Assembly (NCBI GenBank): GCA_016872215.1
Contig: VHAX01000001.1
Location: 54,004 to 118,003, forward strand
Length of the DNA: 64,000 nt
Reading direction: 5' to 3'
DNA from: Sphingomonadales bacterium
GTDB taxonomy: Bacteria > Bacteroidota > Bacteroidia > UBA7662
Shown: in pieces, positions 5,604 through 60,288 of the stretch
Numbering within the stretch: position 1 is the stretch's first letter
Layout: each line of letters begins with the position of its first letter
Program-made: the position numbers and the translations under genes
Notes under the pieces: model-generated
Seen by the model: the letters and a program-made list of their open reading frames with translations, nothing else
The model's database searches: none
Told to the model about the DNA's origin: nothing

Positions 5604-8600
5604 ATGGACTACATCCGTATTTCCCGCTATTCTCTGATTTTTTTCCTGTGTTTTAGTTTGTTCGGACTGGCATCGGGCAACTTTAAAGTATATGCACAGG
5701 GACCTCCCCTGCCGCCATCGACCCACATTCCCCGACTGCAACTGCACACAGTTGACACTGGCTGGGGGCTTCTCACCTATGGCGAACCTGTGACGCGCCT
5801 GCTCGGCTTTGAGGTGAGCGGGCAAGATCTTTCGGATACGGTGCACTTATGGGCTCCCGAGTTTTTTGAGATTCGGCTCGACAGCCTGGCAGGACCCTTC
5901 AGGAACCGAATCAGCCTGCCCGCCTCAGGTCAACTTTCTCCAACCCGGATTTTCGTCCGACTCAAGGACAGCTTGCCAGTAGGAACCTACAACGGCGAGT
6001 TGCTGGCTCTGAGTAGTGGGCAATTGGGTATAGCGTTGGGCATCGAACCCGCGGTGGTATCTACCCGTAACCTACAGGTTTTGGGTCTTCAAGCCCAAAA
6101 CAAGGATTATGACGGAAACTTACAGGCTTCGGTTGTCGGCCAAGCTGTGTTTTTCGGCCTGGCTTTCGGGCAGCAGTTTACCCCCGACCTCAGTGGAATA
6201 AGCTGGGCATTTGCTTCAATCAACGCTGACTCGGGTATTGCCGTTGCACCTGTCGGATCCATCCCCCCACCCAGTTTAAACTACACAGTTACACCGCCCG
6301 GCCTTCAGGCATCCATTCTACCCAAGCGCTTGTCGGTGGGTGGTCTCACCGCACAGAACAAAAACTATGACAGGGGATTGTTGGCGAACGTAACCGGAAA
6401 CGCTGTATTCGTAGGTCTGGTGGCCGGAGAGGTGTTTAGTCAACCCGCCCCGAGGACCTGGCAATTCGAAAACAAAATGGCCGGGATGCAGAAATCGGTT
6501 CGTCCGAACACTCCATTTACTCCGCCATCCAACAATTATACAATCGACTCCACTATACTGAGGGCCGACATTGTACCGGCTCTTACTACGGTACAATCGG
6601 CCGTGGTGCACAACAAAATATACGACCGAACGGCATTGGCAAGTGTTGATTCTGTGCGTCTGAACGGAATTTTGCCGGGCGACAGCGTTCAGGTATTGGC
6701 GAACGGCACCTTCCACCAATTTCGGGCTGGCAACCAGATTCCGGTATCGTTGAACATACAGCTTTCCGGGCCCGATGGCGCCAACTACACGGCAGCAGCA
6801 CCCACGGGTTTATCCGCGAACATAACACCACGGCCCGTGCAGATTACCGGAATTTCCGTGGCAGAAAAGGAATATGACGGTACCCGATCTGCAACGCTAT
6901 TGGGTATTCCACAGCTACAGGGCATCCTTTCGGGCGACGAAACCGATGCAGTTCTTGGTGGACAACCCTTAGCTTTGTTTGCCACACCCGATACAGGCCG
7001 CAACATTCCGGTGACGGTGAGCGGTTTTCAGCTGAACGGGTCAGCCGCCGGAAGTTATCATTTGAGTCAACCCACCGGCCTTCAGGGTGATATTGTATTA
7101 TCGGTTTTGGCAGCCTGGAATTTTCAGCCAAATCATGGCACGCTGCAACATCCCGAGGCCAATGTGGGGCAAGGCTCTCTCTCTCTAATTGGCTCGATGA
7201 GCACTCTGTCGTGGTCGGGTGGGATGAGTACCCAGAATGGCTGCGGAAACGCTGGCACAATGAGCGCAGGCGATACAGCCTGGTCAATTGGTATCACCAA
7301 TCCGGGCAACATAAACGAGTCAGGCGGAATACAGTTGATGTTGGGCAGCGCCTTGTACAGAAACATTAAAATTGTATGGGATCAACGCTGGTCGGGTTCA
7401 TCGCCCAATACCGTACGATTGCAGTACAGTACAGACGGTATCCAATGGGTGAATGTACAGCTCACCGATAGCAACACCAGCTATTGTTTAGGCCGTCTCG
7501 ACAACGGCCGTTTCGAAACCGATTCCACGGGCGATAAATTCCGACGCATCCGGGTTGATTTATCCCAAATCACCCAGATCAACGAACAGACTGTTTTGGG
7601 CTTCCGGATCGTTGCTTCCCATTTCCGAAATACAGGCGCCTTTCGTCAGGTCATCAACCCATCAACAACCGCAACTTCAGGTGCCTGGCGATTCGACAAC
7701 ATCCGGATTACGGGAAAACGGGCAACACCCACGGTTTGGAACGGGGTGAATTGGAGCCAGGGCTCACCCGACACCGGAATCCACGCTATCGTATCGGCCC
7801 CGCTTCGCATCACCCAAAATTTAAACACCAACCGACTGGAACTGGACAGCGGTGCCGTATTGAACGTGGATTCGGGTGCCATACTGAACATAAGAGGCAC
7901 ATTTACCAATCGGGGCATCCTGCAACTAACAGATGGTAAGGCCATCCTCAGGGAAAACTATATCGGTTCCGGTCTCATCCGCGGCAGTCAACGGTCGACC
8001 CTGGAATTACAGCGACAAAACGACGCGGGAACGGTCCTCATGGATAGTCTTTCCGGTAGAAATGCACACACAATTGAAACCCTCATCATGAACATGGGTC
8101 CCCAAGGCCGTCTGCGTCTGGGAAACAAGATGATCATCCATCGGGTCGTAGACCTGAGAGGTGGTGTGCTTCAGACACAGGATAACCTATGCCTTTCGTC
8201 CACTTCCGACACCCTAACTGCTCAAATCAGGGGTGGAACCAATACCTCCATTCAGGGGAAGGTGGATGTGGAACGACACCTTGGGTGGGCAGGCGCCGGC
8301 CACAGCGGATATCGATTTGTGGGGAGTCCGCTCCGCTCCTCGCTACCATTCGCTCTGGTTGGTGGCCTTCCTTTCACACCAAATAGCGTGATTCGCTTCA
8401 GTGAACCACTGAACGCTTATCTATCCGTCCCCATCACCGGTAATCAGTGGAATCCCGCCCAGGCCTACGGTATTTGGACCGATAGCATTCGCACCATTCG
8501 CTTGAGTGGAGAGCCCCAGCTGAACCAATCGGGGCCCTATTTCCTCCAGAATCAATCGGCCCGCTGGAATTTAATGGGCAACCCGTTCCCAAGCGCTATG

Positions 8601-9521
8601 GCATGGGACTCAGTACAGAAAACCAATACCGAAAATGCGGTCTGGGTCTGGAGGAAAGATAGTTTGATTCCGGTTGCTGGGATCTGGGCTGCATACATCA
8701 ACGGGGTGGGAATAAATGGCGCAAATGGGATCCTGGCGCCACTACAAGGTTTCATGGTACGTGCGGGCACCAACGGCTTATCTTCCGTTTTCTTTCCGTC
8801 CACTGCCCGGCAACCCGATATGACTGCTGGTTTTCTGCGACAAAATCAATTTCATCCCCAGATCAGCATTACTTTGGAACAAGCTACACCCAACTTTCGG
8901 GAAGAAGCCATGATTCAATTGAATCCGGATGCAACGTCTGGGTTTGATATCCAACATGATGCGGGATACCTTGGAGATGAATCGAGTGTTTCCCCCTCAC
9001 TCGGCAGCCTCGACTACAATGGTTACGCCTACAGCATCCAATCCGTTCCCGATCCTACCGGTTTGGCCAGGGTCATACCTCTTCGAACTGATTTAGGTCA
9101 GATCGGGGCCTGCCAACTCAATATTCAGCTAAGTCAATGGCCATCGTCAACCCCCATCTTTTTGGAAGACCGCTTGCTTCAGTATATAGAAACCATTGTT
9201 ACTGGTATGGTATACAGCTTTCAGTCAACCGGCCCGGCCGACTCCCTGCGCTTCCGCATACACCTGAATTCAGTTAGTAGCGACATACAAGAAGATGATC
9301 TTTCGAAAATCCAGGTCTTCTTTCACGACGGAAAACTGCACATTCGGCAGGCGGGATCATTAAAACGAATCGAACTCCGGGATCTCAACGGAAGATTGAT
9401 CCAGAGCATCTTTCCCGAGGGATCCAACGAACTCCAATTACCGTTGCCTATCGCCCAGGGCCTCTATTGTCTAACACTTCATGGTAATCGAAGCTTATCC
9501 ACCCGAAAACTAGTGCGATAA
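5604..9521 (+). CDS. Giant T9SS-secreted cell-surface protein (1305 aa) with four MBG (YDG-type) repeats and a C-terminal sorting domain
   Basis: Signal peptide MDYIRISRYSLIFFLCFSLFGLASG. Repeats with QNKDYDGNLQA, QNKNYDRGLLA, HNKIYDRTALA and AEKEYDGTRSA spaced about 85 aa apart (nt ~6080-7080). A beta-helix-like middle region. C-terminal T9SS CTD (...IQVFFHDGKLHIRQ...GLYCLTLHGNRSLSTRKLVR). Confidence 0.7.
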   Translation: MDYIRISRYSLIFFLCFSLFGLASGNFKVYAQGPPLPPSTHIPRLQLHTVDTGWGLLTYGEPVTRLLGFEVSGQDLSDTVHLWAPEFFEIRLDSLAGPFRNRISLPASGQLSPTRIFVRLKDSLPVGTYNGELLALSSGQLGIALGIEPAVVSTRNLQVLGLQAQNKDYDGNLQASVVGQAVFFGLAFGQQFTPDLSGISWAFASINADSGIAVAPVGSIPPPSLNYTVTPPGLQASILPKRLSVGGLTAQNKNYDRGLLANVTGNAVFVGLVAGEVFSQPAPRTWQFENKMAGMQKSVRPNTPFTPPSNNYTIDSTILRADIVPALTTVQSAVVHNKIYDRTALASVDSVRLNGILPGDSVQVLANGTFHQFRAGNQIPVSLNIQLSGPDGANYTAAAPTGLSANITPRPVQITGISVAEKEYDGTRSATLLGIPQLQGILSGDETDAVLGGQPLALFATPDTGRNIPVTVSGFQLNGSAAGSYHLSQPTGLQGDIVLSVLAAWNFQPNHGTLQHPEANVGQGSLSLIGSMSTLSWSGGMSTQNGCGNAGTMSAGDTAWSIGITNPGNINESGGIQLMLGSALYRNIKIVWDQRWSGSSPNTVRLQYSTDGIQWVNVQLTDSNTSYCLGRLDNGRFETDSTGDKFRRIRVDLSQITQINEQTVLGFRIVASHFRNTGAFRQVINPSTTATSGAWRFDNIRITGKRATPTVWNGVNWSQGSPDTGIHAIVSAPLRITQNLNTNRLELDSGAVLNVDSGAILNIRGTFTNRGILQLTDGKAILRENYIGSGLIRGSQRSTLELQRQNDAGTVLMDSLSGRNAHTIETLIMNMGPQGRLRLGNKMIIHRVVDLRGGVLQTQDNLCLSSTSDTLTAQIRGGTNTSIQGKVDVERHLGWAGAGHSGYRFVGSPLRSSLPFALVGGLPFTPNSVIRFSEPLNAYLSVPITGNQWNPAQAYGIWTDSIRTIRLSGEPQLNQSGPYFLQNQSARWNLMGNPFPSAMAWDSVQKTNTENAVWVWRKDSLIPVAGIWAAYINGVGINGANGILAPLQGFMVRAGTNGLSSVFFPSTARQPDMTAGFLRQNQFHPQISITLEQATPNFREEAMIQLNPDATSGFDIQHDAGYLGDESSVSPSLGSLDYNGYAYSIQSVPDPTGLARVIPLRTDLGQIGACQLNIQLSQWPSSTPIFLEDRLLQYIETIVTGMVYSFQSTGPADSLRFRIHLNSVSSDIQEDDLSKIQVFFHDGKLHIRQAGSLKRIELRDLNGRLIQSIFPEGSNELQLPLPIAQGLYCLTLHGNRSLSTRKLVR

Positions 9522-9603: not shown

Positions 9604-12600
9604 ATGAAAACCAATATACTTTTCTTATCTAATTCGGTACGAGGTCAATATCAAAAATCGGTTGTTCGTCCACTCTTCAGTTCATTCATTGCTCTTACCC
9701 TGATTGCTTTTGGCATCTCCAGCTCAGCTCAGGCCCAGACCGACACCCTCGCAACCTGGGAGTTGACGGGGATCAACACCACAATCCCTCCTTGGGGCCT
9801 TTCTCCGCTTCCCGCGCAGATTGTTTCCCCCGCTGTAACCACGGATGGTTGGACGCGAGGTGCGGGAGTTTTGTTCACCGCTGCCGGACTTTCAACAACG
9901 GGCAGCCCGGCTGGTAATGCATGGGGTGGTAACGGATGGGATGCTTACACCACTGCAGGAGCAAATAACATTGATTCTGCATTGTTCAGGGGCGATTTTG
10001 TGAGCATATCCTTCAATGTTGTTGCCGGTCAAACAGTTAGCTTCTCGAGCATTCCTGCCTACAACATACGCCGCTCAAGTTCTGGCCCGAATACGGGTCA
10101 GTGGCAATTCAGCGTCAATCCGAATGGCACTTTTGTGAATATCGGCAACCCAATTACCTGGGGCACAGTAACTACTGGTACAGGAAACCCTCAAATAGCT
10201 CTTGATCTTTCAACCATTGCAGATCTGCAAAATTTGAGTGGTGGAACTTCAGTCACATTTCGAATTGTTAATACGGGAGCTACTGGCTCTGGAGGCACAT
10301 GGTACCTAAACCAATTGACTGCCGCGGGCAGAGACTTCAGTTTCATGGGCAGTGTTGGTGGTGGCGGAAATCCGACTGTGACCCTGACATTGGGCGCTGT
10401 TACACCAGGTCTCTTCTGCACTATGGCGAGTGGACAGTCGACCGTGTTTGCCAATTATTCCTCCACTGGTACGCTGACCGGACCTGTTGAATTACAATTG
10501 TCGAATGCCCAAGGTTCATTTACAAGCCCTACTGTATTGGGCAATTCACCGGCATCTTTTGGAACGATCACAGCCACCCTACCCTCGGGATTGCCCAACG
10601 GAACAGGCTACATGTTTCGCCTCGTTTCAGGAAGCACTGTAAGTTCACCCTCTTCTTCTGTGCGCATCTACAGCACGCCGCTCGAGGCAACTGCCTTCAC
10701 TGCAACCCCAGGTAACGGAACGGTTACACTCACATGGACCAACCCATCGGATTGCTTCGACCAAGCGCTTGTGGCGGCCGATGCAAACGCCATCAACGGA
10801 GTGCCGTCGGGTAACATTTTCTTATCCAACCCAATATTTGGATCGGGTGCTAACCTGAACAATGGATATGTGGTATTTGCCGCTACGGGCAACAGTATAA
10901 CGGTAACGGGTCTCACGAATGGCACCACTTACCATTTTAAGGTATTCACACAAGGCGGAAACACGTGGAGTTCAGGAATAAGTGTACAGGCCACTCCATT
11001 TACAACAGGCGTACTGCCCATAGTGAACATTTCATCCTTTGTGGGTACGGATTCACTCGGAGCGCTCACGAATTTGGGCAGCCGCTACCGAATCTCTGGT
11101 GTGGTGCATGGCATTAACCAATACAGAAGCACAAGTACCCCACTTGGTGTGCAGTATATAGTTTTAGATCAGAGTGGTGGCATTACAGTTCGTCGCGCCG
11201 GAACTGGTTTCGGCATAAGCGGTCTCGCCCAGGGGGATTCCGTTGTAGCAGAGGGAATTTTGGAGCAGTACAATGGTCTGGCCCAATTGAACATCGATAC
11301 AATGATTCAAATCTCTACCGGAAACGTCCTTCATCCGGCCCAAGTGGTGAACACTGTATCGGAATTAACCGAAAACAAGCGAATCCGCATCAATAATTTG
11401 TATATTCTCTCCGGCAGCTGGCCAGCGACAGGTTCGCCTAATAGCAATCTAATCGTTACTAATGGTACGGATACTATGCAGTTGTTTATTTTGAACCTGA
11501 CCAATATTCCGGGTACCACCCCACCAGCTGGTCTGTTCGATGTAATTGGTTATGGCGGGCAGTATGACGTGAGTAGTCCGTTGACCTCCGGCTATCAGTT
11601 GCAGCCCCATTTTTCTTACGACATCATGCCGGTAACGGTGGCCACCCCCACCCTCAACTTCACCCGGGTCGACACCTTCATTCAAAATGCCTCTACGAGT
11701 CTGCTGATGACCCTAGCCGTACAAAATCCGAGAACAACAGCGCAAAGCGTGAGTTTCACCGTCAACGCCAGTTCGGGTGCTGCCTATGGCACAAACTGGG
11801 AGACCTACCCACCCGTTGTGGGCAACGCCCTTACACTCCCGATTCCTGCCAATGCCACCACTGCCAGTTTCAGCCTGATCCTGTACGGAAACATTCCCGT
11901 GGGTCGCACCGACACGATGCGGTTTACCATCTCCTCGGCAACGGGTGGTTATGTGGCTGGTCCCCTTTCCAGCGCCGCTGTTCGTGTGGGCAATCTGGTT
12001 GCACCAGTATTACCTGAATATTCCATCGGCATCATCCGCGGCAACAATAATGGTGGTGTGGCCGATTCAATCAATGTAAACCTACGCACGAGAGGTATTG
12101 TGTTGGGCCTCAACAAGCGTCCGGCGGGTCTGGAATTCCATATTTTCGACAAGAACAGCAACACGGGCATTGGCGTTTTCCGGAATACGGGCAACCTTGG
12201 TTATACTGTGCGGGAAGGCGACTCAATATTGGTGCAAGGAATTGTGTCCCAATTTAATGGCCTATCGCAGATTACTGTGGATCAGTTGACACTACTCGAC
12301 TCGAACCGTACTCTACCCACTCCTCAGCTGGTGACCGCAATGGGTGAACAAACGGAATCGCGACTGATTCAAATGAACAACCTCACTATGGTTACGCCTT
12401 CCCAATGGCCGACACCAGGTACCACGGGCTCTGGACGTACGGTGCGGGTGACCAATGGTGTCGATTCATTCGATGTCCGAATTGACAATGATGTTAATTT
12501 ATTTGGCACACCTGCACCCACAGGTCCATTCAACATGGTTGGTATTGGCGGACAGTTCAGCACGGTCACACCACGCGTAGGTGGCTTTCAGTTGATGCCC

Positions 12601-13770
12601 CGATACATCGCGGATTTGTTGCCTGCAGTCGTATTCAATACCATTGGTGGCTCTTTGCGCTACGACAACACTGCTCAATCGCCTATAACCAATTCGACTG
12701 TACAGTTGCTATCGGGCACCACCATCATACAGTCGGCTACAACCACGTCGACTGGCTCATTCAATTTTGGAAACTTACCCGACGGCGCCTATAGTATGGT
12801 GGCATCTACAACTAAGCCATGGGGAGGTGTAAATGCCACTGACGCTCTCAATGTGGCCAGACATTTTTCCAACACTCAGTTGCTTTCTGGCCTTCGCCTC
12901 ACCGCAGCTGATGTTAATGGTTCGTCCTCCATCAACTCCACAGATGCTCTGAACATATCAAGGCGCACTGCTGCAGTGATTACCACATTCTCTGTAGGCA
13001 ACTGGTATTTTGAGTCGCCCCAACTGACTGTGAGTGGTGGAACAACTACCACTCAAAACATCAAAGGCATTTGCTTTGGGGATGTCAATGGCAGCTACAA
13101 CCCTGCACTGAGAACACTACCCACGGTTTCACTCATTAATGGCGCCACGACAACCGGTTTGTACACCTCAATCCCGGTAACGGCAGCAGAAGACATAAAA
13201 CTAGGTGCTGTCACCCTAATTATGGACATTCCACAAGGCGTTGAAGTTACTGAAATCGTTCCGGCTGCGCTCATAAGTGGCTCATTTGTGTCTACCATAG
13301 TTAACGGGCAGGTAAGAATTAGTTGGTATTCACTCGATGAAGTGCAGTCATCTGCAGGCGAAGAATTGTTTAGCCTGCGCACCCGTTACAATGGTCAACG
13401 CTCAATCGCTGCATCGGAATGGACAATCGATGCGATTAGTGAACTGGCAGACGGATGGGCCAATCCATATACACGTTCCGTATTGAAAATTGGCGTATTG
13501 GCTGGAGTCGAATCAAACAGTGTTTTATATCCAAATCCCTCGAATGGGGTTGCCAACCTACGTTTTGAATTAACCCAAACAGCGCAAGTTCACATCCGAA
13601 TCATGGACATGTCCGGACGCCAAATCCACAGCATAAACCTAAATCAGTCGACCGGTATCCATTTAGTTGAGATGCCATATCTCGCTACTGGTCAGTATCT
13701 GGTACGCCTAAACATTGAATCGGACAACACATCCAGCAGCGAAGTACACCGTTGGGTTGTGAAGCACTAA
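9604..13770 (+). CDS. Giant T9SS-secreted surface protein (1388 aa) with an FN3-like domain, a dockerin-like Ca-binding module, a cohesin-like module and a C-terminal sorting domain
   Basis: Signal peptide (...IALTLIAFGISSSAQA). FN3-like TATPGNGTVTLTWTNPSD. Dockerin-like GGVNATDALNVARHF...ADVNGSSSINSTDALNISRR (nt ~12820-12965). Cohesin-like LGAVTLIMDIPQGVEVTEIVPA...VNGQVRISWYSLD (nt ~13150-13400). T9SS CTD VLYPNPSNGVANLRFELTQTAQVHIRIMDMSGRQIHS.... Confidence 0.7.
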   Translation: MKTNILFLSNSVRGQYQKSVVRPLFSSFIALTLIAFGISSSAQAQTDTLATWELTGINTTIPPWGLSPLPAQIVSPAVTTDGWTRGAGVLFTAAGLSTTGSPAGNAWGGNGWDAYTTAGANNIDSALFRGDFVSISFNVVAGQTVSFSSIPAYNIRRSSSGPNTGQWQFSVNPNGTFVNIGNPITWGTVTTGTGNPQIALDLSTIADLQNLSGGTSVTFRIVNTGATGSGGTWYLNQLTAAGRDFSFMGSVGGGGNPTVTLTLGAVTPGLFCTMASGQSTVFANYSSTGTLTGPVELQLSNAQGSFTSPTVLGNSPASFGTITATLPSGLPNGTGYMFRLVSGSTVSSPSSSVRIYSTPLEATAFTATPGNGTVTLTWTNPSDCFDQALVAADANAINGVPSGNIFLSNPIFGSGANLNNGYVVFAATGNSITVTGLTNGTTYHFKVFTQGGNTWSSGISVQATPFTTGVLPIVNISSFVGTDSLGALTNLGSRYRISGVVHGINQYRSTSTPLGVQYIVLDQSGGITVRRAGTGFGISGLAQGDSVVAEGILEQYNGLAQLNIDTMIQISTGNVLHPAQVVNTVSELTENKRIRINNLYILSGSWPATGSPNSNLIVTNGTDTMQLFILNLTNIPGTTPPAGLFDVIGYGGQYDVSSPLTSGYQLQPHFSYDIMPVTVATPTLNFTRVDTFIQNASTSLLMTLAVQNPRTTAQSVSFTVNASSGAAYGTNWETYPPVVGNALTLPIPANATTASFSLILYGNIPVGRTDTMRFTISSATGGYVAGPLSSAAVRVGNLVAPVLPEYSIGIIRGNNNGGVADSINVNLRTRGIVLGLNKRPAGLEFHIFDKNSNTGIGVFRNTGNLGYTVREGDSILVQGIVSQFNGLSQITVDQLTLLDSNRTLPTPQLVTAMGEQTESRLIQMNNLTMVTPSQWPTPGTTGSGRTVRVTNGVDSFDVRIDNDVNLFGTPAPTGPFNMVGIGGQFSTVTPRVGGFQLMPRYIADLLPAVVFNTIGGSLRYDNTAQSPITNSTVQLLSGTTIIQSATTTSTGSFNFGNLPDGAYSMVASTTKPWGGVNATDALNVARHFSNTQLLSGLRLTAADVNGSSSINSTDALNISRRTAAVITTFSVGNWYFESPQLTVSGGTTTTQNIKGICFGDVNGSYNPALRTLPTVSLINGATTTGLYTSIPVTAAEDIKLGAVTLIMDIPQGVEVTEIVPAALISGSFVSTIVNGQVRISWYSLDEVQSSAGEELFSLRTRYNGQRSIAASEWTIDAISELADGWANPYTRSVLKIGVLAGVESNSVLYPNPSNGVANLRFELTQTAQVHIRIMDMSGRQIHSINLNQSTGIHLVEMPYLATGQYLVRLNIESDNTSSSEVHRWVVKH

Positions 13771-32465: not shown

Positions 32466-35400
32466 TTAGTTAGGGGCGGGCATCTTGATCAAGCGGCTGC
32501 GTGCTTTCGCCCGTATGTAATCGGGGGCGTCGCCTTGAGCAATGCTCTCCAATGTAGCACGAGCCTGAATCGCATTCTTTTGGGCTATGTAGGAATCGGA
32601 GAGCAATAGGAATGCCATCCCCAGCCAATGATCGTAATAGGGAATGCGGTCGGCCATTTCGAAGACCCGAGCCTGGCATTTGGGGTAATCGCCCTTTCGG
32701 AAGGCGATGTCGGCCAGATAGTACAACGCGGTTGCCCCCGGTTCATTCTTGTTGGACGCGTAGACCTTCTCTAATATGGTCTGGGCGTCGGAAAGACGAG
32801 AAGCTTCCATTAAACAAAGTGCACTGGCAATCTGAGCATCCGTGCGCAGAGCTTCTGGAGCCGACTCCATTTCCAAAATACGGTTGGCTATTTTTTCCAG
32901 TTCCGGCCAATTCTCCAGATTTACCCAAGCGGTCATTTGTCCAGCCAACGCTTCCTGCACATCCTGTGGTGCACTCACCCATCCACCCCACTTCTTCCAT
33001 GCCTCCGCAGATTGCTGCCATGACGAATCGGCTGCGCGTTCCTCGGCCAACATGCGTAAGACCGATTCGGTATATGGGTGCAGGGAACGGCCGGCCAAGT
33101 CCTCCAAATCCGCATACATACTATCGCGTTGATTCAGGCTGCGTGCGCATTGGGCACGAATCAGGCGGGCGTATAAATGATAAGAACCATTTGGATATTT
33201 CTTGAGGTACTCATCGACCTCCTTGCGGGCAAGTTGACAATCGCCACGGTTATAGGCCTGCTCGGCCGACTGAAAGCGCAGGGTGTCCATTTCCGAGTCA
33301 GCCGGCGTGCCGAGACCAATATTCTTGCGCATTTCGAGATAGTCGTCGGGACGGTTTTGCTCAGCGTATATGACCCTAAGCGTCGCAAGCGCCTCTGATG
33401 CCTGGGGTGACTGCGGATAAGTGCGCAGCAGGCGTGTGTACTGGTCGATGGCCGGCTGCACCTGATCCTGTTGATAGAGAATGAGTCCCCGTATAAGCCA
33501 TGCGGAAGGCATCAGCGGGCTACCAGGTTTCACCCGTTCCAAAGTATCTGCATACGCCAGACTTTTGAAAGGCAGTCCCTCGTTGTGACCAGCACCCATG
33601 AGTTCGAGCACGGCCGTCTCCCAAAATTCAGACCCCCTGTAACGCGCCAAAAATCGCTCGAGTGACAGGATCTTATCGGCCTGTCGCCCCATCAAACCCT
33701 GCAATATGGCTTGCTGATAAGCAGAATAATCCGGCCGATTCGCACCCGTTTTCTGGCATTCGCCATAAACATCAAATGCCGCTCTGTACTGCTTCAGTGC
33801 GAAAAGCGCATCAGCACGACGCAGACGGGCATCGGCCACCAGAGTATTCCGGCCTTCTTCGCCGGGCGCGTTGCTCCACTCAGAAGCAGGAGCCGAAACA
33901 ACCCTTCGGAAATAATCCTCCGCCAGCCTGAATTCTTCCATCCGAAAATAGGCATACGCCAATCCATAATTCGCCATCGCAGCATTCTCCTGTGATTCGA
34001 CTCCCTCAGGAACTGCCTTCCTCAAATTCAGATAGGCTTTATAGTCATCGGCCGACTGGGCGAATTTCTGCAGACGAAAACGAGTTTCTCCACGCCAGTA
34101 ATGGGCCCTGCGGGTGACATTTACCTCAGAGGCCAATTCCAGCGCCTCGTTGAAATGCTGCTCGGCTGTGGTAAAGTTTCCCTCTTGATAGAGCTGCATG
34201 GCCCGGTATAAAGCTGCCCGCTGCCAAAGGACTCTCTGTACCGCCTCGGTCTGGCGAAGGGAACGGAATACATCCAAAGCCTCACGAAAGTTCTTCCCCA
34301 CCAACAGCTGCCCACTCAACATAGATTTGACCTCTTCTGTGTGGGCAGATTGCGGGTAGTTCTTCAGAAATCCCTTTAACTCCATTAAAGCCTGGTTGTT
34401 CATCTTAAGCTGGCAGCAGAGTTGTGCATATCGAAAAGCTGCTAACTCGTTGATTTCAGGTGTGCCTTTCCGCCGCGACGCAGTGTAGAATGCGGCGAGG
34501 GCCTCATGAGACCTCCCCAATTGCAAACAGGCTTCGCCCAGCAACAAAAACGACCGGTGACTCAGGGTATCATCGAGACTGGTTGTGGCCTCCTGAAAGG
34601 CCGAAGCTGCCTTCTCCGGATCCCCAAGCGTATAGGATGCAAATCCCAACCGAAACTGACCGGCCGGTGATAAACGACCACCAAGCTTCTGATAGCGTTC
34701 AATATAGGTTAGAAAGGAAGCATATTCGCCGGTCGAAAAATAGGCCTGCGCAATGATGTGGTTGAGCTGATCCGCCTGTTCCAAACCCGGACGTGCGCTC
34801 AGCGGAAGTGCATAAGAGAAGAGGTCTTCATAGCGACCCATGCGGTAGTATTGCCGGGCAAGCAAGGGGGGTACGTATAAGCTACAGGATGGATGCTCCC
34901 GAATGGGGTCTAAAAAAGCAAGCGCCTGTTCATGTTGTCCGCTTTCATCGCAAACCTTCCCCATAGCGAGGGAAGCTAAAGGGGCTTCAGGCGACTCGGT
35001 TCTGGTGAGTGGCTCCAGCAAGGTTCGGGCCGTCTGTGCGTCGCCTTTTTTCCACAGAGCATATCCCCTTAAATAATCGCCCTGCTGACGTTCATTCTTA
35101 TGCATACGGGGCCACTGTACCTCCTTCGACAGGGATATGACTTCCGAATATTTTTTGTCGCGGTGCCGGTATTGCATCAACTGAAGCCGCACCCGGTCTG
35201 CTTCAAATGTACCCTGCATTTCATCATACAACTGCTCCATAAGCGCTTGGCTGCCCGGCCAACCCAGCCGGGCACGACTTAACGCATCATACACCCTAGC
35301 CTGAAAGAGCTCAGTGGGAGTCCATCCATCATTTCGGGTGGTGTGCGGCATACGGGTGTATGCCTGATCGAGCAACGAAAGTACCACTCTGTATTGCCCC

Positions 35401-35546
35401 TTATCGTATTGCTGGATAGCCTCTGACAGGCGATCGGAGGGTTGATGCAGGTTCTGTGGCCGCTGAGCGTACACAAATTCTGGCCAGTTGGCCGTCAGTA
35501 AGACAAGTAGTATAAAATAAAAAACTGCGGTGCGTCTTTGCATCAT
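32466..35546 (-). CDS. Secreted tetratricopeptide-repeat protein (1026 aa)
   Basis: Signal peptide MMQRRTAVFYFILLVLLTANWPEFVYAQ, with no lipobox cysteine. TPR-like helical repeats throughout (many W/Y-x-x-A-x-x-Y/F and G-x-Y blocks). Confidence 0.6.
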   Translation of the reverse strand: MMQRRTAVFYFILLVLLTANWPEFVYAQRPQNLHQPSDRLSEAIQQYDKGQYRVVLSLLDQAYTRMPHTTRNDGWTPTELFQARVYDALSRARLGWPGSQALMEQLYDEMQGTFEADRVRLQLMQYRHRDKKYSEVISLSKEVQWPRMHKNERQQGDYLRGYALWKKGDAQTARTLLEPLTRTESPEAPLASLAMGKVCDESGQHEQALAFLDPIREHPSCSLYVPPLLARQYYRMGRYEDLFSYALPLSARPGLEQADQLNHIIAQAYFSTGEYASFLTYIERYQKLGGRLSPAGQFRLGFASYTLGDPEKAASAFQEATTSLDDTLSHRSFLLLGEACLQLGRSHEALAAFYTASRRKGTPEINELAAFRYAQLCCQLKMNNQALMELKGFLKNYPQSAHTEEVKSMLSGQLLVGKNFREALDVFRSLRQTEAVQRVLWQRAALYRAMQLYQEGNFTTAEQHFNEALELASEVNVTRRAHYWRGETRFRLQKFAQSADDYKAYLNLRKAVPEGVESQENAAMANYGLAYAYFRMEEFRLAEDYFRRVVSAPASEWSNAPGEEGRNTLVADARLRRADALFALKQYRAAFDVYGECQKTGANRPDYSAYQQAILQGLMGRQADKILSLERFLARYRGSEFWETAVLELMGAGHNEGLPFKSLAYADTLERVKPGSPLMPSAWLIRGLILYQQDQVQPAIDQYTRLLRTYPQSPQASEALATLRVIYAEQNRPDDYLEMRKNIGLGTPADSEMDTLRFQSAEQAYNRGDCQLARKEVDEYLKKYPNGSYHLYARLIRAQCARSLNQRDSMYADLEDLAGRSLHPYTESVLRMLAEERAADSSWQQSAEAWKKWGGWVSAPQDVQEALAGQMTAWVNLENWPELEKIANRILEMESAPEALRTDAQIASALCLMEASRLSDAQTILEKVYASNKNEPGATALYYLADIAFRKGDYPKCQARVFEMADRIPYYDHWLGMAFLLLSDSYIAQKNAIQARATLESIAQGDAPDYIRAKARSRLIKMPAPN

Positions 35547-54857: not shown

Positions 54858-57575
54858 ATGTCATTGATCAACAGAGCTGTTTTACTACTTGTTTTATTAA
54901 ATTTCTCAACATTCCTGTGTTCAGGTCAGGAAGCGAGAATGGGCGCGTCATTAGCAACCAGATTTATTGAAAACCCAGGGCCAAACACTTGGATGAGGAT
55001 AACCGTATCCTTCAAAGAACAAGCGCCCGTATTAGATTTACTCAGGCGGTATGAACTGGATGGAACTGAGCTAAAAGTACGCGCACAAGAGGTGAACCGC
55101 GTTTGTAGTTTGCTGAGTGATCGGGTGCAGCTTCCCTTTTTGACGGATTTAGAGACAATGGGTTCGCAGGCAAACGATAATCGTCCACGTTTGATTCGCC
55201 GTTTTTGGATCGTTAATATGGTCGAGCTGGAAGTGACTATCAGGCATATAGATCTGCTGCTGCGCCACCCCGCTGTTGAGGAAATAGAACTCAGCAGCGC
55301 GTTTCAGGTCTCGCTGGTAGAACCGGTTTCGGGAAGCGCATCCCCTGAAATGCCCAATGGGAGGGAGGTAGGACTAACCGCAATAGGTGCACCCGCTCTT
55401 TGGCAAATGGGCTACTCGGGCAAAGGACGAAAAGCTATGCTGATGGACACCGGCGTTTGGCCCGATCACCCAGCCTTGAAGGGTAAATTTCTTGGCACCC
55501 GATACCCATTGTCGCACGCCTGGTTGCCCTATGATTTCGCGACACCCCGCGACAAAAACAGCAACCATGGCACACACGTAATCGGCACTGTACTCGGGCT
55601 GGATACGGCAACCCGCGATACGATCGGCGCTGCCTTCGACGCCTATTTTTTAGCGACCGACCCGATTGTGACTAACATCGCATTCGTGCGTGATTGGACC
55701 CAACTTATGGCCGCTTTTGAATGGGCACTCAACCCGGATGGTGACACCAGTACCACCCACGATATTCCGGATGTGATCAACAATTCATGGGGACGAAATA
55801 ACGCAGGATTCGATTCCCTCTGCGGGCATCCCCTGATCACCAGTGCCATGATCGCCATAGAAGCTGCTGGAATCGCCAATGTTTTTTCAACCGGAAATGA
55901 CGGACCAGGACTGGCTACAACGATAGTACCCGCCCAGGTGATCATCGACTCCCTCAATTTATTTGCGGTTGGTGCGGTTCAGGCTGCCGCTCCTGGGTAC
56001 CCTCTGGCCGGGTTTTCCAGCTGGGGGCCCTCGCGCTGCACACAAGACAGTTTTTTGATGATCAAGCCCGAAGTTTCGGCACCCGGGGTTGACGTACGCT
56101 CAGCAGACGGACCCACTGGCTACGGGATTAAATCGGGTACCAGCATGGCTTCGCCGCACGTAAGCGGTGCAGTTCTATTATTGAAAGAAGCCTTTCCCCA
56201 ACTCTCAGGGCGTCAAATTCTGAATGCCCTCTATCAATCAGCCATCGACCTTGGAGTTCCGGGTGAGGACTATCAGTATGGAAGAGGTCTCATCAACGTG
56301 CCGGCAGCCTTCCAGTTCTTGTTGCAATCTAACACTCCTCAACCTCCCGCTCGTGCATACGATTTAGCGATTGCAGGTGTAGACTCGCCCGAAACTGCGT
56401 TTTTTGGCAGTGGAGGTTGCCTGCAAACCGGCCCTATTATGCCTCCCGTGCTCATACTCCGGCAGCGTTGGCGGATCGAGGTCATGAACCGGGGCGATAG
56501 TATTTTACCCGGCTTTCGGCTGTTTATCGATATAAATGGACAAAGCGACACCATCAACCATAATAATTCAGTATTTCCAGGCCAGCGCGTACGGGTCACC
56601 ACACCCTATTTTGTACTTAATCCGCCGGCGCTGCCCACTGGGCCGGCAGGTGTACCCAATCGATTGTTGTTTCGTGCCCAAAACCTCGCAGGGATGATGG
56701 AGCGCGACACCATTAACAACCGTTGGTTTGCCGAATTCCCTACCCGCAACATTGTGGAAACTCGCTTCTATGAAGCCTTCGACAGCCTTCGAACCAACGG
56801 ACTTTATGCACATCGCATCGACGATTGGGTCATCCGGGATTTGGATGCCGACGCGAAGACCTGGCAGATTGTGCCCACAGGAGGGCGCGCAGCTCAATCG
56901 GCGTGCGTAAAGATGAAAGATTATGGTCCAGGCAACGGTCAACTCGATGAGCTGGTTTCGCCCCTGATGTGGTTCAGCCGGCCTGCCTCTGGCGCGAGCG
57001 GCACCGGAGCCTTGTCGTTCGACATAGCCTACAGCAACAGGAGTACAACCTTTAGCGATACTCTGTTTCTGGATTGGTCGACCGACTGTGGCGCAACCTA
57101 TCAACGACTATGGTTGAATGGGGGCGACAGTATGAAAACCTACAACGGACTGGTTCCTTCCGATTCCGCCCACTGGCGTCGCTGGCAGATCCCTTTACCC
57201 GACAGCCTCCTGCAACCATATCCCCTTTCAGCCCGCATTCGTTTCACCACGAAAAACGACTGGGGCGGCAATTTGTATCTGAGTAACATTCAGGTGTATT
57301 ATCAGGTTGCCAGTTTGCAGGAAGAAGATTTGTCGACCTCCCTTAAAATTTATCCAAACCCAGCCTATGCACAACTCAATGTAGTGCTACCGAATGCCCA
57401 ATGCGGGAAGCCTTTACTCTACGATGCGCTGGGAAGAATTCAGGCGGTTGAATGGAACCAAACAGATCCGGACACCTACAGGCTAAATACGCAGGGATTG
57501 CCTGTCGGCATCTATTACATCCGCTCTCATTCTAAACTCAAAACCCTTCAGGGAAAAGTGCTGATTTTCAAATGA
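54858..57575 (+). CDS. S8-family subtilisin-like serine peptidase with a T9SS C-terminal sorting domain (905 aa)
   Basis: Catalytic triad blocks MLMDTGVWPDHPAL (Asp), SNHGTHVIGTV (His) and GTSMASPHVSGAVLLLKEAFP (Ser). C-terminus KIYPNPAYAQLNVVL...GIYYIRSHSKLKTLQGKVLIFK. Confidence 0.85.
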   Translation: MSLINRAVLLLVLLNFSTFLCSGQEARMGASLATRFIENPGPNTWMRITVSFKEQAPVLDLLRRYELDGTELKVRAQEVNRVCSLLSDRVQLPFLTDLETMGSQANDNRPRLIRRFWIVNMVELEVTIRHIDLLLRHPAVEEIELSSAFQVSLVEPVSGSASPEMPNGREVGLTAIGAPALWQMGYSGKGRKAMLMDTGVWPDHPALKGKFLGTRYPLSHAWLPYDFATPRDKNSNHGTHVIGTVLGLDTATRDTIGAAFDAYFLATDPIVTNIAFVRDWTQLMAAFEWALNPDGDTSTTHDIPDVINNSWGRNNAGFDSLCGHPLITSAMIAIEAAGIANVFSTGNDGPGLATTIVPAQVIIDSLNLFAVGAVQAAAPGYPLAGFSSWGPSRCTQDSFLMIKPEVSAPGVDVRSADGPTGYGIKSGTSMASPHVSGAVLLLKEAFPQLSGRQILNALYQSAIDLGVPGEDYQYGRGLINVPAAFQFLLQSNTPQPPARAYDLAIAGVDSPETAFFGSGGCLQTGPIMPPVLILRQRWRIEVMNRGDSILPGFRLFIDINGQSDTINHNNSVFPGQRVRVTTPYFVLNPPALPTGPAGVPNRLLFRAQNLAGMMERDTINNRWFAEFPTRNIVETRFYEAFDSLRTNGLYAHRIDDWVIRDLDADAKTWQIVPTGGRAAQSACVKMKDYGPGNGQLDELVSPLMWFSRPASGASGTGALSFDIAYSNRSTTFSDTLFLDWSTDCGATYQRLWLNGGDSMKTYNGLVPSDSAHWRRWQIPLPDSLLQPYPLSARIRFTTKNDWGGNLYLSNIQVYYQVASLQEEDLSTSLKIYPNPAYAQLNVVLPNAQCGKPLLYDALGRIQAVEWNQTDPDTYRLNTQGLPVGIYYIRSHSKLKTLQGKVLIFK

Positions 57576-57621: not shown

Positions 57622-60288
57622 ATGAAAAAGGAATTATTTTATTCAGGGTTATGGGTATCTGCATGCCTGCTGATACCCTTGGCTGCCGATGCCGGGCGTC
57701 CCGACCCCCTTTTGGCGCGCAGGATAGCCTCGGGCGGTTATGCAGCCGGTACTATGGTGGAGTGGGGGTTGGTTTTGTCAAGGCAAATCGATACCGACTC
57801 ACTTCGGCGGGAGATGCAGACCAACAACTATACCGCGCAGCAAAGAGCACAACGCGTCATGAGGGATGCACTTTCCCTGCAAGCCTCGACCCAACCACCA
57901 TTAATCGCTCGCTTGTCGGAACAAATCCCTTCGCTTCAAATTTCCCATGCCTTCTGGATCAGCAATATGCTGTTGATCCGGGCCGAAGCCAGTGCACTCA
58001 ATGTGCTCTTGATCGCCCCCGAAATCGATCTGATTTTTGATCCCTCCGATTATCCGACCCGTGCCACCGAGCCTGTAGAGGCCAAGGCGGAATCAGACCG
58101 TGAATCGGGAAACCCGGAGGTGCCAGGCGGGCGTGAGCCGGGACTGGATGTAATTGGTGCCCCGACCCTTTGGGCAATTGGGTACACGGGTAAAGGGAGG
58201 AAAGCGTTTACAGTAGACACGGGTACGTGGACCGAACACCCCGCGCTTGCGCACCGATTTGTAGGGAATTTCCGGCCCATCACTGAAGGCTGGTTCAGCC
58301 AGGAAAGTCGTTACCCTATTGACCGTCCGTCGCACCACGGCACCCATGTGAACGGAACCATTCTGGGTATGGATACCGCCACCCACGACACCTTGGGTGT
58401 CGCCTTCGGGGGTTATTTTATGGTGTCCAACCCGCTTACACACAGCAACCTCACACCCCTCCACATCAACTTACTCAGCTTTCAGTGGGCCATGAATCCG
58501 GATGGCGACACCAGCACATTCGATGATCTACCGGATGTGATCAACAATTCATGGGGACAGGCCGGCGCGGCCGACACTTCGTTTTGCCAGAACTGGAGCA
58601 CCCAGATTTTCAATATGGTTGAAGCGGCTGGCATAGCCATCACATTTTCAGCCGGAAACGACGGTCCGGGCGCTGCTACGCTAAAACATCCCCAATTTGT
58701 GAACACCAATCCGGTCAACATTTTCTCCATTGGAGCCGTCAATGGTAACATCGGCGGCTATCCGATTGCCGATTTTTCGAGCCGCGGCGTGAGTTTATGT
58801 GGTGGAAGCGGTTCCCTCCTGATCAAACCCGAGGTGGTGGCTCCGGGCGTGAATGTGCGTTCGGCCTACGGGAAAACGGGCTACGGCCTACTCTCTGGTA
58901 CCTCCATGAGTTGCCCCCATGTATCGGGGGCGGTCCTATTGCTCAAGGAAGCCTTTCCCCAGCTTGGGGGCGACAGCATCTTGTGGGCGCTTTATCAATC
59001 GGCAACCGATATGGGCTTAGCAGGCGAAGACAATACCTTTGGAAACGGACTCATTTCGCTGCCTGCCGCCTTTTCATATTTGGCGACACACCACACCCCA
59101 GCGCAACCAGGCGGTGGCCCCTACGACCTGGCACTGGCTCCGCTAATATTACCCACCGCAAATGGAAATATGTATTGCGCAGAGCAATTTTCAGCTGGAA
59201 TGGACGTAGGGGTGACCCTTCGCAACCAGGGTGATAGCATACTCACAAACCTGAATCTGACAGCACGCAGCGGCAGATTTCCCACGCGAAGCATTCCCGT
59301 TAACATTCAGCTTGCATATAGTCAAAACCATAGCCTGACTGTGAGTCAAATACGGATTTGGGAAGGCTGGAATGAACTATGGTTTACGGGAGAGGCCACC
59401 ACCGCACCATCCGATGCGGATCCGGTCGATAACCACCGGAGTGTCCGTTTTCTCGTTCAGGGACTCGACACACTTAACCCATTTGCCCCCAGCAATGAGG
59501 CGCACGTGGCGGCAGATGATTTGGTAGCCGACAGCCTGGTATATATTCAGAATCTCACCGACGACGATTACACCTGGGATACCGCCGCAGTCGGAGGGTT
59601 GTCGCGCGACTCATACGCCTTTCGCCTGAGGCATTTGCAATATGGAGGCCGCAACCAGCAACGCGACCGTCTCATTACCCGCAGTTATTTTACTGGTAGC
59701 GGTTCCCTCAGTAGCCTGTCGTTTAGGCGTGCCTATCTCAACCGCAACTCCGCGTTTCGCGACAGTTTGCGGGTAACTCTGGTATGTGACTGCGGGGCGG
59801 TGGAACGTACCCTATACTACAGCGGGGGTGACAGCATGCGCAGCGGCATGAATACGATGGTGCCCGACGACTCGTTGGATTGGAAACAACATTCATATGA
59901 TTTACCCGAATTGCGTTTATACCCCTGCCACATCCGGATGGAAACCATCAACGATTTTGGCGGGAATTTGTATATCGGAGATATGGGCATACAATCTCGT
60001 TTGGCGGTAAGCTGTGAAGAACAACCAGAAGCAGTTCGCCACCGACTATATCCCAACCCCTGTGGCGATGGAATTTATTTGGAGGGTCAGGATCTGCTTT
60101 CAGACCTGAGCCAAATTCGTTTGCGCGATGCTGTGGGCCGCCGACTTCCCCTTCCCTTTGCCCGGGAAGAGTCGGCCTCCTCCATAAATTTTGATACCCG
60201 GTCGTTGCCAGCAGGTCTCTATTATCTCGAAATTGACAGCCCGATGCGAGCAACCGAAGTGATACGTTTCATTCGCCTAAAACCCTAA
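57622..60288 (+). CDS. S8-family serine peptidase paralogue with a T9SS C-terminal sorting domain (888 aa)
   Basis: FTVDTGTWTEHPAL, SHHGTHVNGTI and GTSMSCPHVSGAVLLLKEAFP blocks. C-terminus RLYPNPCGDGIYLEG...GLYYLEIDSPMRATEVIRFIRLKP. Confidence 0.85.
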   Translation: MKKELFYSGLWVSACLLIPLAADAGRPDPLLARRIASGGYAAGTMVEWGLVLSRQIDTDSLRREMQTNNYTAQQRAQRVMRDALSLQASTQPPLIARLSEQIPSLQISHAFWISNMLLIRAEASALNVLLIAPEIDLIFDPSDYPTRATEPVEAKAESDRESGNPEVPGGREPGLDVIGAPTLWAIGYTGKGRKAFTVDTGTWTEHPALAHRFVGNFRPITEGWFSQESRYPIDRPSHHGTHVNGTILGMDTATHDTLGVAFGGYFMVSNPLTHSNLTPLHINLLSFQWAMNPDGDTSTFDDLPDVINNSWGQAGAADTSFCQNWSTQIFNMVEAAGIAITFSAGNDGPGAATLKHPQFVNTNPVNIFSIGAVNGNIGGYPIADFSSRGVSLCGGSGSLLIKPEVVAPGVNVRSAYGKTGYGLLSGTSMSCPHVSGAVLLLKEAFPQLGGDSILWALYQSATDMGLAGEDNTFGNGLISLPAAFSYLATHHTPAQPGGGPYDLALAPLILPTANGNMYCAEQFSAGMDVGVTLRNQGDSILTNLNLTARSGRFPTRSIPVNIQLAYSQNHSLTVSQIRIWEGWNELWFTGEATTAPSDADPVDNHRSVRFLVQGLDTLNPFAPSNEAHVAADDLVADSLVYIQNLTDDDYTWDTAAVGGLSRDSYAFRLRHLQYGGRNQQRDRLITRSYFTGSGSLSSLSFRRAYLNRNSAFRDSLRVTLVCDCGAVERTLYYSGGDSMRSGMNTMVPDDSLDWKQHSYDLPELRLYPCHIRMETINDFGGNLYIGDMGIQSRLAVSCEEQPEAVRHRLYPNPCGDGIYLEGQDLLSDLSQIRLRDAVGRRLPLPFAREESASSINFDTRSLPAGLYYLEIDSPMRATEVIRFIRLKP

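Follow-up and report, generated by a model that had tools for sequence, protein, structure and literature searches.

A dockerin inserted into a β-sandwich co-evolves with its neighboring cohesin in a cassette that precedes the type IX sorting domain of Bacteroidota proteins

The window analyzed here is a 64,000-nucleotide stretch of contig VHAX01000001.1 (assembly GCA_016872215.1, forward-strand positions 54,004–118,003) from a bacterium named in GenBank as a member of the Sphingomonadales and placed by GTDB in the Bacteroidota. It contains a gene of 1388 codons at 9604–13770 (+, as are all features of this gene given below) in the list of open reading frames, whose product runs from a signal-like N-terminus through ∼960 residues of all-β cargo to a C-terminal cassette and the sorting domain of a type IX secretion system (T9SS). 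A first-pass annotation made from the letters alone had proposed that this reading frame combines dockerin-like and cohesin-like modules. The reading frame exists, as do the four peptides on which the proposal was based: GGVNATDALNVARHF (aa 1074–1088, nt 12823–12867) and ADVNGSSSINSTDALNISRR (aa 1102–1121, nt 12907–12966) in the first and second dockerin-like segments, and LGAVTLIMDIPQGVEVTEIVPA (aa 1200–1221, nt 13201–13266) and VNGQVRISWYSLD (aa 1233–1245, nt 13300–13338) in the cohesin-like segment. The last 380 residues form a four-part cassette consisting of a split β-sandwich that carries the dockerin, a linker, the cohesin (aa 1175–1300) and the T9SS tail. In Gram-positive cellulosomes, the pairing of cohesins with dockerins is the classic means of gluing proteins together, and its role elsewhere is still obscure; the cassette joins this glue to a Bacteroidota type IX secretion tail. 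Three of its properties had been missed by the earlier annotation: the insertion of the dockerin in a β-sandwich, the incomplete first Ca2+ loop, and the occurrence of the cassette far beyond this one protein.

Relatives of the cassette were gathered by searching 1.84 billion cluster representatives exhaustively with phmmer, and an alignment of 30 diverse relatives over aa 1010–1305 served both as a family profile and as input to AlphaFold2. The resulting 296-residue cassette model has a mean predicted local distance difference test score (pLDDT) of 94.9 and a predicted template modeling score (pTM) of 0.90. Its secondary structure begins with five strands and three helices, continues with four short strands and a brief linker (pLDDT about 87), and ends with nine strands. 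The dockerin occupies 12817–12978 (aa 1072–1125). Pfam Dockerin_1 (PF00404) matches aa 1074–1120 with 30.2 bits in the whole protein (E = 5e-7) and 34.2 bits in the segment (E = 3e-8), against a gathering cut-off of 22.9, and confirms the dockerin call; the outcome that would have spoken against the first-pass annotation, in which both segments fall into unrelated folds and match neither dockerins nor cohesins, is not what we find, since Dockerin_1 passes its threshold. The same family matches 30 of the 30 diverse cassette relatives, and the 30-cassette profile in turn matches the solved dockerins 8x3a (E = 4.9e-11), 4uyq and 1ohz. The dockerin helices of the model fall at cassette residues 69–79, 87–93 and 103–113 with pLDDT values of 93–98, and therefore describe a three-helix fold.

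The dockerin is inserted between strands 5 and 6 of a transthyretin-like sandwich of the CarboxypepD_reg or SdrD-B-like type. The first five strands are encoded by 12631–12816 (aa 1010–1071), and the return strands, which close the sandwich behind the dockerin, by 12979–13077 (aa 1126–1158; strands 125–148 of the model). The return-strand segment has an invariant F1129, G1132 and W1134. To follow contacts across the cassette we used mean-field direct-coupling analysis (DCA) of 260 non-redundant full cassettes (effective number 240) at a sequence separation of at least 6; among its top 150 pairs, 15 connect the return strands with the first five strands of the sandwich. SdrD-B/NOMO-type sandwiches are also matched by the 30-cassette profile. 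The sandwich–dockerin portion as a whole (aa 1010–1167) resembles an X-module–dockerin unit. The best solved dockerin relative, PDB 8x39/8x3a, is an uncharacterized 'serine protease' fragment with two tandem dockerins, and its match runs on past helix 3 into a segment (ITHLPVGN) like F-x-x-G-x-W; a literature search for 8x39 found no paper.

The duplicated Ca2+-loop pattern described in the first-pass annotation holds for the second segment, which is a whole 12-residue loop (D1103-V-N-G-S-S-S-I-N-S-T-D1114, with S instead of G at position 6), but not for the first, where only positions 6–12 are present locally (GGVNATD, G1074–D1080). The Dockerin_1 match starts at profile position 8, and the residues at loop 1 positions 1, 3 and 5 (T1069, K1071 and W1073) are non-acidic and are conserved as such among relatives. 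Set against the two complete 12-residue Ca2+ loops that define a type I dockerin, repeat 2 is complete and repeat 1 is partial.

A candidate for the missing half of loop 1 lies ∼85 residues downstream. The motif GDVNGSYNP at 13078–13104 (aa 1159–1167), recognized from conservation, couplings and the ends of relatives, follows the last sandwich strand directly and marks the end of the sandwich–dockerin unit. Its D is conserved in 198 of 203 sequences, N or D at its asparagine in 198 of 203 and its S in 189 of 203. The residue preferences of GDVNGS are those of loop 2 positions 1, 3 and 5, and DVNGS joined to GGVNATD would read as a canonical Ca2+ loop. The motif couples to the dockerin through V1084–V1161, I1118–G1159, N1105–N1162 and G1074–Y1165. 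At least 21 complete relatives, GH18 chitinases among them, terminate 0–5 residues past the motif; one of them was checked as a complete gene, and the next gene starts 12 bp on. Because relatives end at the motif, because it couples to the dockerin, and because the local loop 1 positions are non-acidic, the motif probably belongs to the dockerin unit. Judging from its residues, GDVNGS may supply the missing positions 1–5 of loop 1 and so complete a split Ca2+ site. If this is correct, the split loop would be an unusual way to make an EF-hand-type site.

The second module of the pair, a nine-strand β jelly roll at 13126–13503 (aa 1175–1300), has the strand number and topology of a cohesin. The Pfam search proposed as a check on this assignment gave no match: PF00963 (Cohesin) misses the protein, also when aa 1125–1305 are searched by themselves at E ≤ 10, a level that no other Pfam family reaches there either, and a homologue search based on word indexing returned nothing when only the cohesin-like segment was used as query. 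The Pfam model also misses 28 of the 30 relatives and matches two (best E = 8.2e-7), and precomputed PF00963 assignments appear on a few relatives. The cohesin identity stands on other grounds. The 30-cassette profile matches the solved cohesin 2xdh_A from Archaeoglobus fulgidus with E = 3.9e-7 (profile positions 175–264 to chain residues 10–99), the AlphaFold2 model has the expected fold, and the cohesins 4uyp, 3kcp and 1ohz are among the top fold matches. We conclude that the β-rich segment is a cohesin and that the Pfam model is too narrow to capture it. In public annotation such proteins are named 'dockerin type I domain-containing protein' or 'T9SS type A sorting domain-containing protein', and the cohesin goes unrecorded in most cases.

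The type A T9SS sorting domain follows at 13525–13734 (aa 1308–1377), and the protein ends at aa 1388. It scores 42.8 bits with PF18962 (Por_Secre_tail; cut-off 27) and 40.2 bits with TIGR04183 (cut-off 23), and both modules lie directly upstream of it. The ∼290 residues of the cassette are conserved as one block, with the tail in addition. At E ≤ 1e-3 the phmmer search returned at least 1000 protein clusters related to the cassette; 339 of them also pass E ≤ 1e-10. The order sandwich–dockerin–sandwich–cohesin, fixed at one dockerin to one cohesin and followed by a tail of 70–120 residues, occurs in at least 219 of 352 fetched proteins, and the distance from the cassette end to the C-terminus has a median of 91 residues (5–95% range 85–100). 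The linker between dockerin unit and cohesin measures 12–14 residues in 308 of 324 cassettes (95%); one surface loop of the cohesin ranges from 17 to 29.

The cassette is a mobile unit on many cargo types. Its host proteins are from about 150 to 5489 residues long, and their cargo includes CBM48/CBM20 starch-binding modules, CUB, PKD, plastocyanin-like (copper-binding), FGE-sulfatase, GEVED and fn3 domains. Scanning a single genome for each species gave 543 confirmed stretches, from the best 80 of which taxonomy and counts per metagenome-assembled genome (MAG) were taken: nearly all are Bacteroidota MAGs, many of them from lakes, with one Melioribacteraceae MAG. Paralogous cassette loci number at least 14 in one MAG (LacPavin_0419_WC90_MAG_44_8), at least eight in another and at least six in each of two others. 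Among the matches listed, the closest relatives are in the Bacteroidota MAGs VGGT01 (74%) and SYHW01 (73%), each of which also has a paralogue at 43–44%. A second cassette was looked for in the window and not found, nor does the window hold any of the multi-cohesin or dockerin-only relatives that are present elsewhere.

These other architectures take several forms. Between one and six extra cohesins precede the cassette in 34 of 195 relatives. Giant relatives of 2000–5400 residues (P0108, P0103, P0177, P0095 and P0140) have four to six extra cohesin-like modules ahead of the cassette and look scaffoldin-like, and P0140 has a second sandwich–dockerin unit at its N-terminus. In four MAGs, as a conserved pair, a gene for a 'minimal' cassette protein of ∼460 residues precedes a cohesin-only gene (L076, 5776–7161 and 7180–9297; also L072, L049 and L031); the ∼700-residue product of the latter has a signal peptide and two Pfam cohesins (55–63 bits), and neither a dockerin nor a recognized T9SS tail. 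This two-cohesin neighbor is a candidate for a between-chain partner of the cassette dockerin. Secreted proteins with the sandwich–dockerin unit only (P0346 at L080 1167–2735, P0344, P0345, P0351, P0323, P0330 and P0347), GH18 chitinases among them, are complete and end right after GDVNGSYxP without a cohesin or a T9SS tail.

The strongest evidence on the relation between the two modules comes from their covariation. Seven of the top 20 DCA pairs join dockerin and cohesin: T1122–T1204, T1122–I1206, A1078–S1240, T1079–A1282, T1079–A1202, S1119–S1240 and N1111–A1202. No sandwich–cohesin pair reaches the top 20, and the real sandwich–cohesin scores (≤1.05) are at noise level, which controls for shared phylogeny. 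When the cohesin blocks were shuffled among cassettes in eight trials, the best dockerin–cohesin score was 0.81–1.22 versus 2.96 in the real data, and the number of such pairs above 1.3 was zero versus seven. On the dockerin side the coupled residues lie at loop positions 9–11 of the first repeat and where helix 3 ends; these are the classical recognition positions in established cellulosome structures. On the cohesin side they involve alternating residues of strand 3 (A1202, T1204 and I1206) with S1240 in strand 6 and A1282 in strand 8, an arrangement that fits the 8-3-6-5 sheet; strands 3, 6 and 8 belong to the classical dockerin-binding sheet. DCA also recovers the cohesin strand neighbors 3–8, 3–6, 2–7 and 4–7, which independently supports both the cohesin fold and the method.

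The strongest pair shows a size-like compensation, in that F or Y in helix 3 goes with S in strand 3 (199 sequences versus 4), and T, V, A, I or S goes with T (39 versus 11); the protein in the window is of the T–T type. This matching holds polypeptide by polypeptide among the paralogues of one genome, which indicates that each dockerin is tuned to its own cohesin rather than to one pool shared by all. Within a single polypeptide, dockerin and cohesin thus co-evolve as a matched pair at the classical interface. The simplest interpretation of this covariation is that the two modules most likely bind each other, possibly in a Ca2+-dependent manner. The co-evolving pairs offer concrete targets for mutation, and the fixed boundaries of the cassette offer ready constructs.

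Two readings without such binding have to be set against these data. Both modules might be structural filler, a passive spacer between cargo and sorting domain. The locally degenerate Ca2+ loop 1 (T-x-K-x-W at positions 1, 3 and 5) and the failure of the Pfam Cohesin model on this protein and most relatives would suit a spacer, as would the β-sandwich that many T9SS cargo proteins have before their tail. A spacer does not, however, account for strong and specific coupling between dockerin and cohesin at the classical interface with none between sandwich and cohesin, nor for the invariance or near-invariance of D1080, D1114, R1121, D1160 and W1241 across at least 190 sequences, and we consider it improbable. 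Alternatively, the jelly roll might be a carbohydrate-binding module for a surface polysaccharide or substrate, with the dockerin serving only as a Ca2+-stabilized fold. Cohesins share the β-jelly-roll architecture with several carbohydrate-binding modules, and some cassette proteins do have starch-binding modules as cargo, but in structure and profile searches cohesins, and not carbohydrate-binding modules, come out on top, and the conserved, co-evolving face of the cohesin points to the dockerin. We give glycan binding very little credence.

If dockerin and cohesin bind, they may do so within one chain or between chains. We favor docking within the chain, although with no better than even confidence: the dockerin–cohesin lock would make a rigid, Ca2+-stabilized pedestal under the cargo. 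The grounds for this preference are the confident monomer model, the length-constrained linker and the fixed 1:1 order. The protein would leave the cell through Sec and, in a second step, the T9SS. Type A sorting domains are cleaved on export, and by analogy with this established biology the new C-terminus, just past the cohesin, would be fixed at the cell surface. The dockerin would fold around Ca2+ and dock on strands 8-3-6 of the cohesin of the same chain, and sandwich, dockerin and cohesin, now locked together, would hold the variable cargo off the outer membrane. If true, the within-chain lock would be a rigid pedestal of a new kind on which proteins are displayed at the surface.

Several points weigh against a lock of this kind. 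The coevolution signal fits docking within a chain and docking between chains of the same protein alike. AlphaFold runs on monomers are prone to placing a swapped interface within a single chain, and the reading of the cassette as one rigid body comes from the confidence scores of the predicted model. The local incompleteness of loop 1 makes Ca2+ dependence, and even proper folding of the dockerin, uncertain. In addition, there are the relatives with extra cohesins, with cohesins only, or with the sandwich–dockerin unit only, and given the cohesin-only and dockerin-only proteins, docking between chains is probably also used in these organisms.

The first-pass annotation had suggested self-association or scaffold formation at the cell surface. 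The matched pair at the classical interface bears out the pairing that this idea presupposes, whereas the model, the linker and the 1:1 order favor docking in the same chain; surface self-association is therefore plausible but not the reading we favor. In its general form, the dockerin would bind the cohesin of another copy, of a paralogue or of a cohesin-only partner. Dimers could result, or chains running head to tail, or a protein network on the outer membrane reminiscent of the cellulosome, possibly with recruitment of sandwich–dockerin-only proteins. The same coevolution signal is compatible with such homotypic docking, and the additional cohesins upstream of some cassettes, the two-cohesin, dockerin-less proteins encoded beside cassette genes in four MAGs, and the complete proteins that end in a sandwich–dockerin unit with no cohesin of their own all suit it. 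There is also a precedent, Amy4 of Ruminococcus bromii, in which self-recognition leads to autoaggregation (PMC4611034). Against it, the monomer model comes out with high confidence as one rigid body, and the linker, unlike those of scaffoldins, is short and constrained in length; the matching per polypeptide among at least 14 paralogues argues against a shared promiscuous pool. The sandwich–dockerin-only proteins lack a T9SS tail that would bring them to the surface. Docking between chains is the main alternative, which we hold to be possible but less likely than docking within the chain; if it occurs, the cassette would be a new outer-membrane assembly system.

A more far-reaching form of docking between neighbors would make the cassette a self-complementary, Ca2+-switched connector. 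The connector would have a split EF-hand loop, and docking from neighbor to neighbor after T9SS export, with the cohesin-only proteins and sandwich–dockerin-only enzymes also enlisted, would build a cellulosome- or S-layer-like coat on the outer membrane of uncultured freshwater Bacteroidota. We regard this as unlikely, but it would amount to a Gram-negative, T9SS-anchored counterpart of the cellulosome with arbitrary cargo.

The combination of a cohesin and a dockerin in one protein is in itself known, from adaptor scaffoldins, from Amy4 and from archaeal proteins. The cassette cohesin has profile-level homology to the non-cellulosomal A. fulgidus cohesin 2xdh, whose parent protein also carries a dockerin. 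However, the identity is only 17–18%, and the protein is archaeal with no T9SS context. As in the adaptor scaffoldins (for example A. cellulolyticus ScaB and C. thermocellum CipA), cohesin and dockerin occur in one secreted protein. In an adaptor scaffoldin the partner of the dockerin is a cohesin of a different type that sits on a second protein; such scaffoldins carry several cohesins and linkers that are long and flexible, and are anchored through SLH or sortase. The cassette, in contrast, has a 1:1, co-evolved pair, a fixed short linker, a dockerin inside a sandwich, and probable anchoring through the T9SS. With a single cohesin, a single dockerin and no recognized catalytic domain, the protein encoded in the window is not a scaffoldin of the cellulosome type. 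Type II and III dockerins are braced by an adjacent β-sandwich X-module. In the X-module–dockerin dyad the dockerin follows the sandwich, whereas in the cassette it is inserted between strands 5 and 6. The gingipains of P. gingivalis likewise have a β-sandwich directly upstream of a type A sorting domain; unlike the gingipain Ig-like domain, the unit before the tail here comprises three modules and ∼290 residues with a dockerin–cohesin pair.

A functional parallel is R. bromii Amy4, where one cohesin and one dockerin on a single polypeptide recognize each other and the enzyme autoaggregates (PMC4611034). The host of Amy4 is a Gram-positive Firmicute, its modules are not adjacent in a fixed cassette, its aggregation takes place between molecules, and it has neither the sandwich insertion nor the T9SS tail of the cassette. 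Non-cellulosomal cohesin and dockerin modules are widespread, a point cited in PMC9012536 and PMC8542988. Our literature search found no description of the cassette; the main review of non-cellulosomal modules lay outside that search, and a prior mention is possible. What sets the cassette apart from the known systems is the dockerin within a transthyretin-like sandwich, possibly with a split Ca2+ loop, the fixed downstream cohesin that co-evolves with it, and the direct coupling to a T9SS tail.

Full-length orthologues of the protein number 43, at 44–79% identity, with Dockerin_1 in 43 of 43 and Por_Secre_tail in 42 of 43. Residues 1–45 (9604–9738) are a probable Sec signal peptide, as read from the translation, in which the hydrophobic stretch LFSSFIALTLIAFGISSSAQA is followed by Q. 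The cargo includes an fn3 domain at 10720–10983 (aa 373–460) that scores 28.7 bits on a sub-segment and 21.6 on the whole protein, with a cut-off of 25. A repeated module spotted by eye in the translation spans 11011–12633 (aa ∼480–680 and ∼810–1010; example stretches GDSVVAEGILEQYNGLAQLN and GDSILVQGIVSQFNGLSQIT). Its first copy lies at about aa 480–680; its second, at 12142–12615 (aa 847–1004), has weak similarity to OB-folds, DUF5689 and the N-terminal part of ExeM-NucH, and all of these matches are below cut-off (DUF5689, E = 0.0015–0.005; tRNA_anti-codon OB, E = 0.04; ExeM_NucH, profile positions 27–101). Profile searches found no catalytic domain in the cargo (aa 46–1009), which is all-β. 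JGI gives orthologues the name 'DNA/RNA endonuclease YhcR with UshA esterase domain', yet the searches detect neither a nuclease nor an esterase domain. An AlphaFold2 model of the cargo (aa 40–1010, 21 orthologues) is of low confidence (pLDDT 53.7, pTM 0.28).

No core T9SS genes were seen in the 64-kb window. A 1026-residue TPR protein at 32466–35546 (−) has YbgF-like and BamD-like repeats and weak similarity to the T9SS lipoprotein PorW/SprE (42 bits; cut-off 250). Directly upstream of the cassette gene, at 5604–9521 (+), lies a gene for a 1305-residue protein with three YDG domains (128 bits), the last ∼70 residues of which look tail-like by eye, with no tail model matching at E ≤ 0.01. Two S8/subtilisin-like peptidase genes stand in tandem at 54858–57575 and 57622–60288 (+); the product of the first, which matches Por_Secre_tail with 26.1 bits (cut-off 23), shows that the cassette protein is not the only T9SS cargo of the window. 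With ValS, an ABC-F ATPase, the YDG-repeat protein and the two S8-like peptidases, the window is an ordinary piece of Bacteroidota chromosome.

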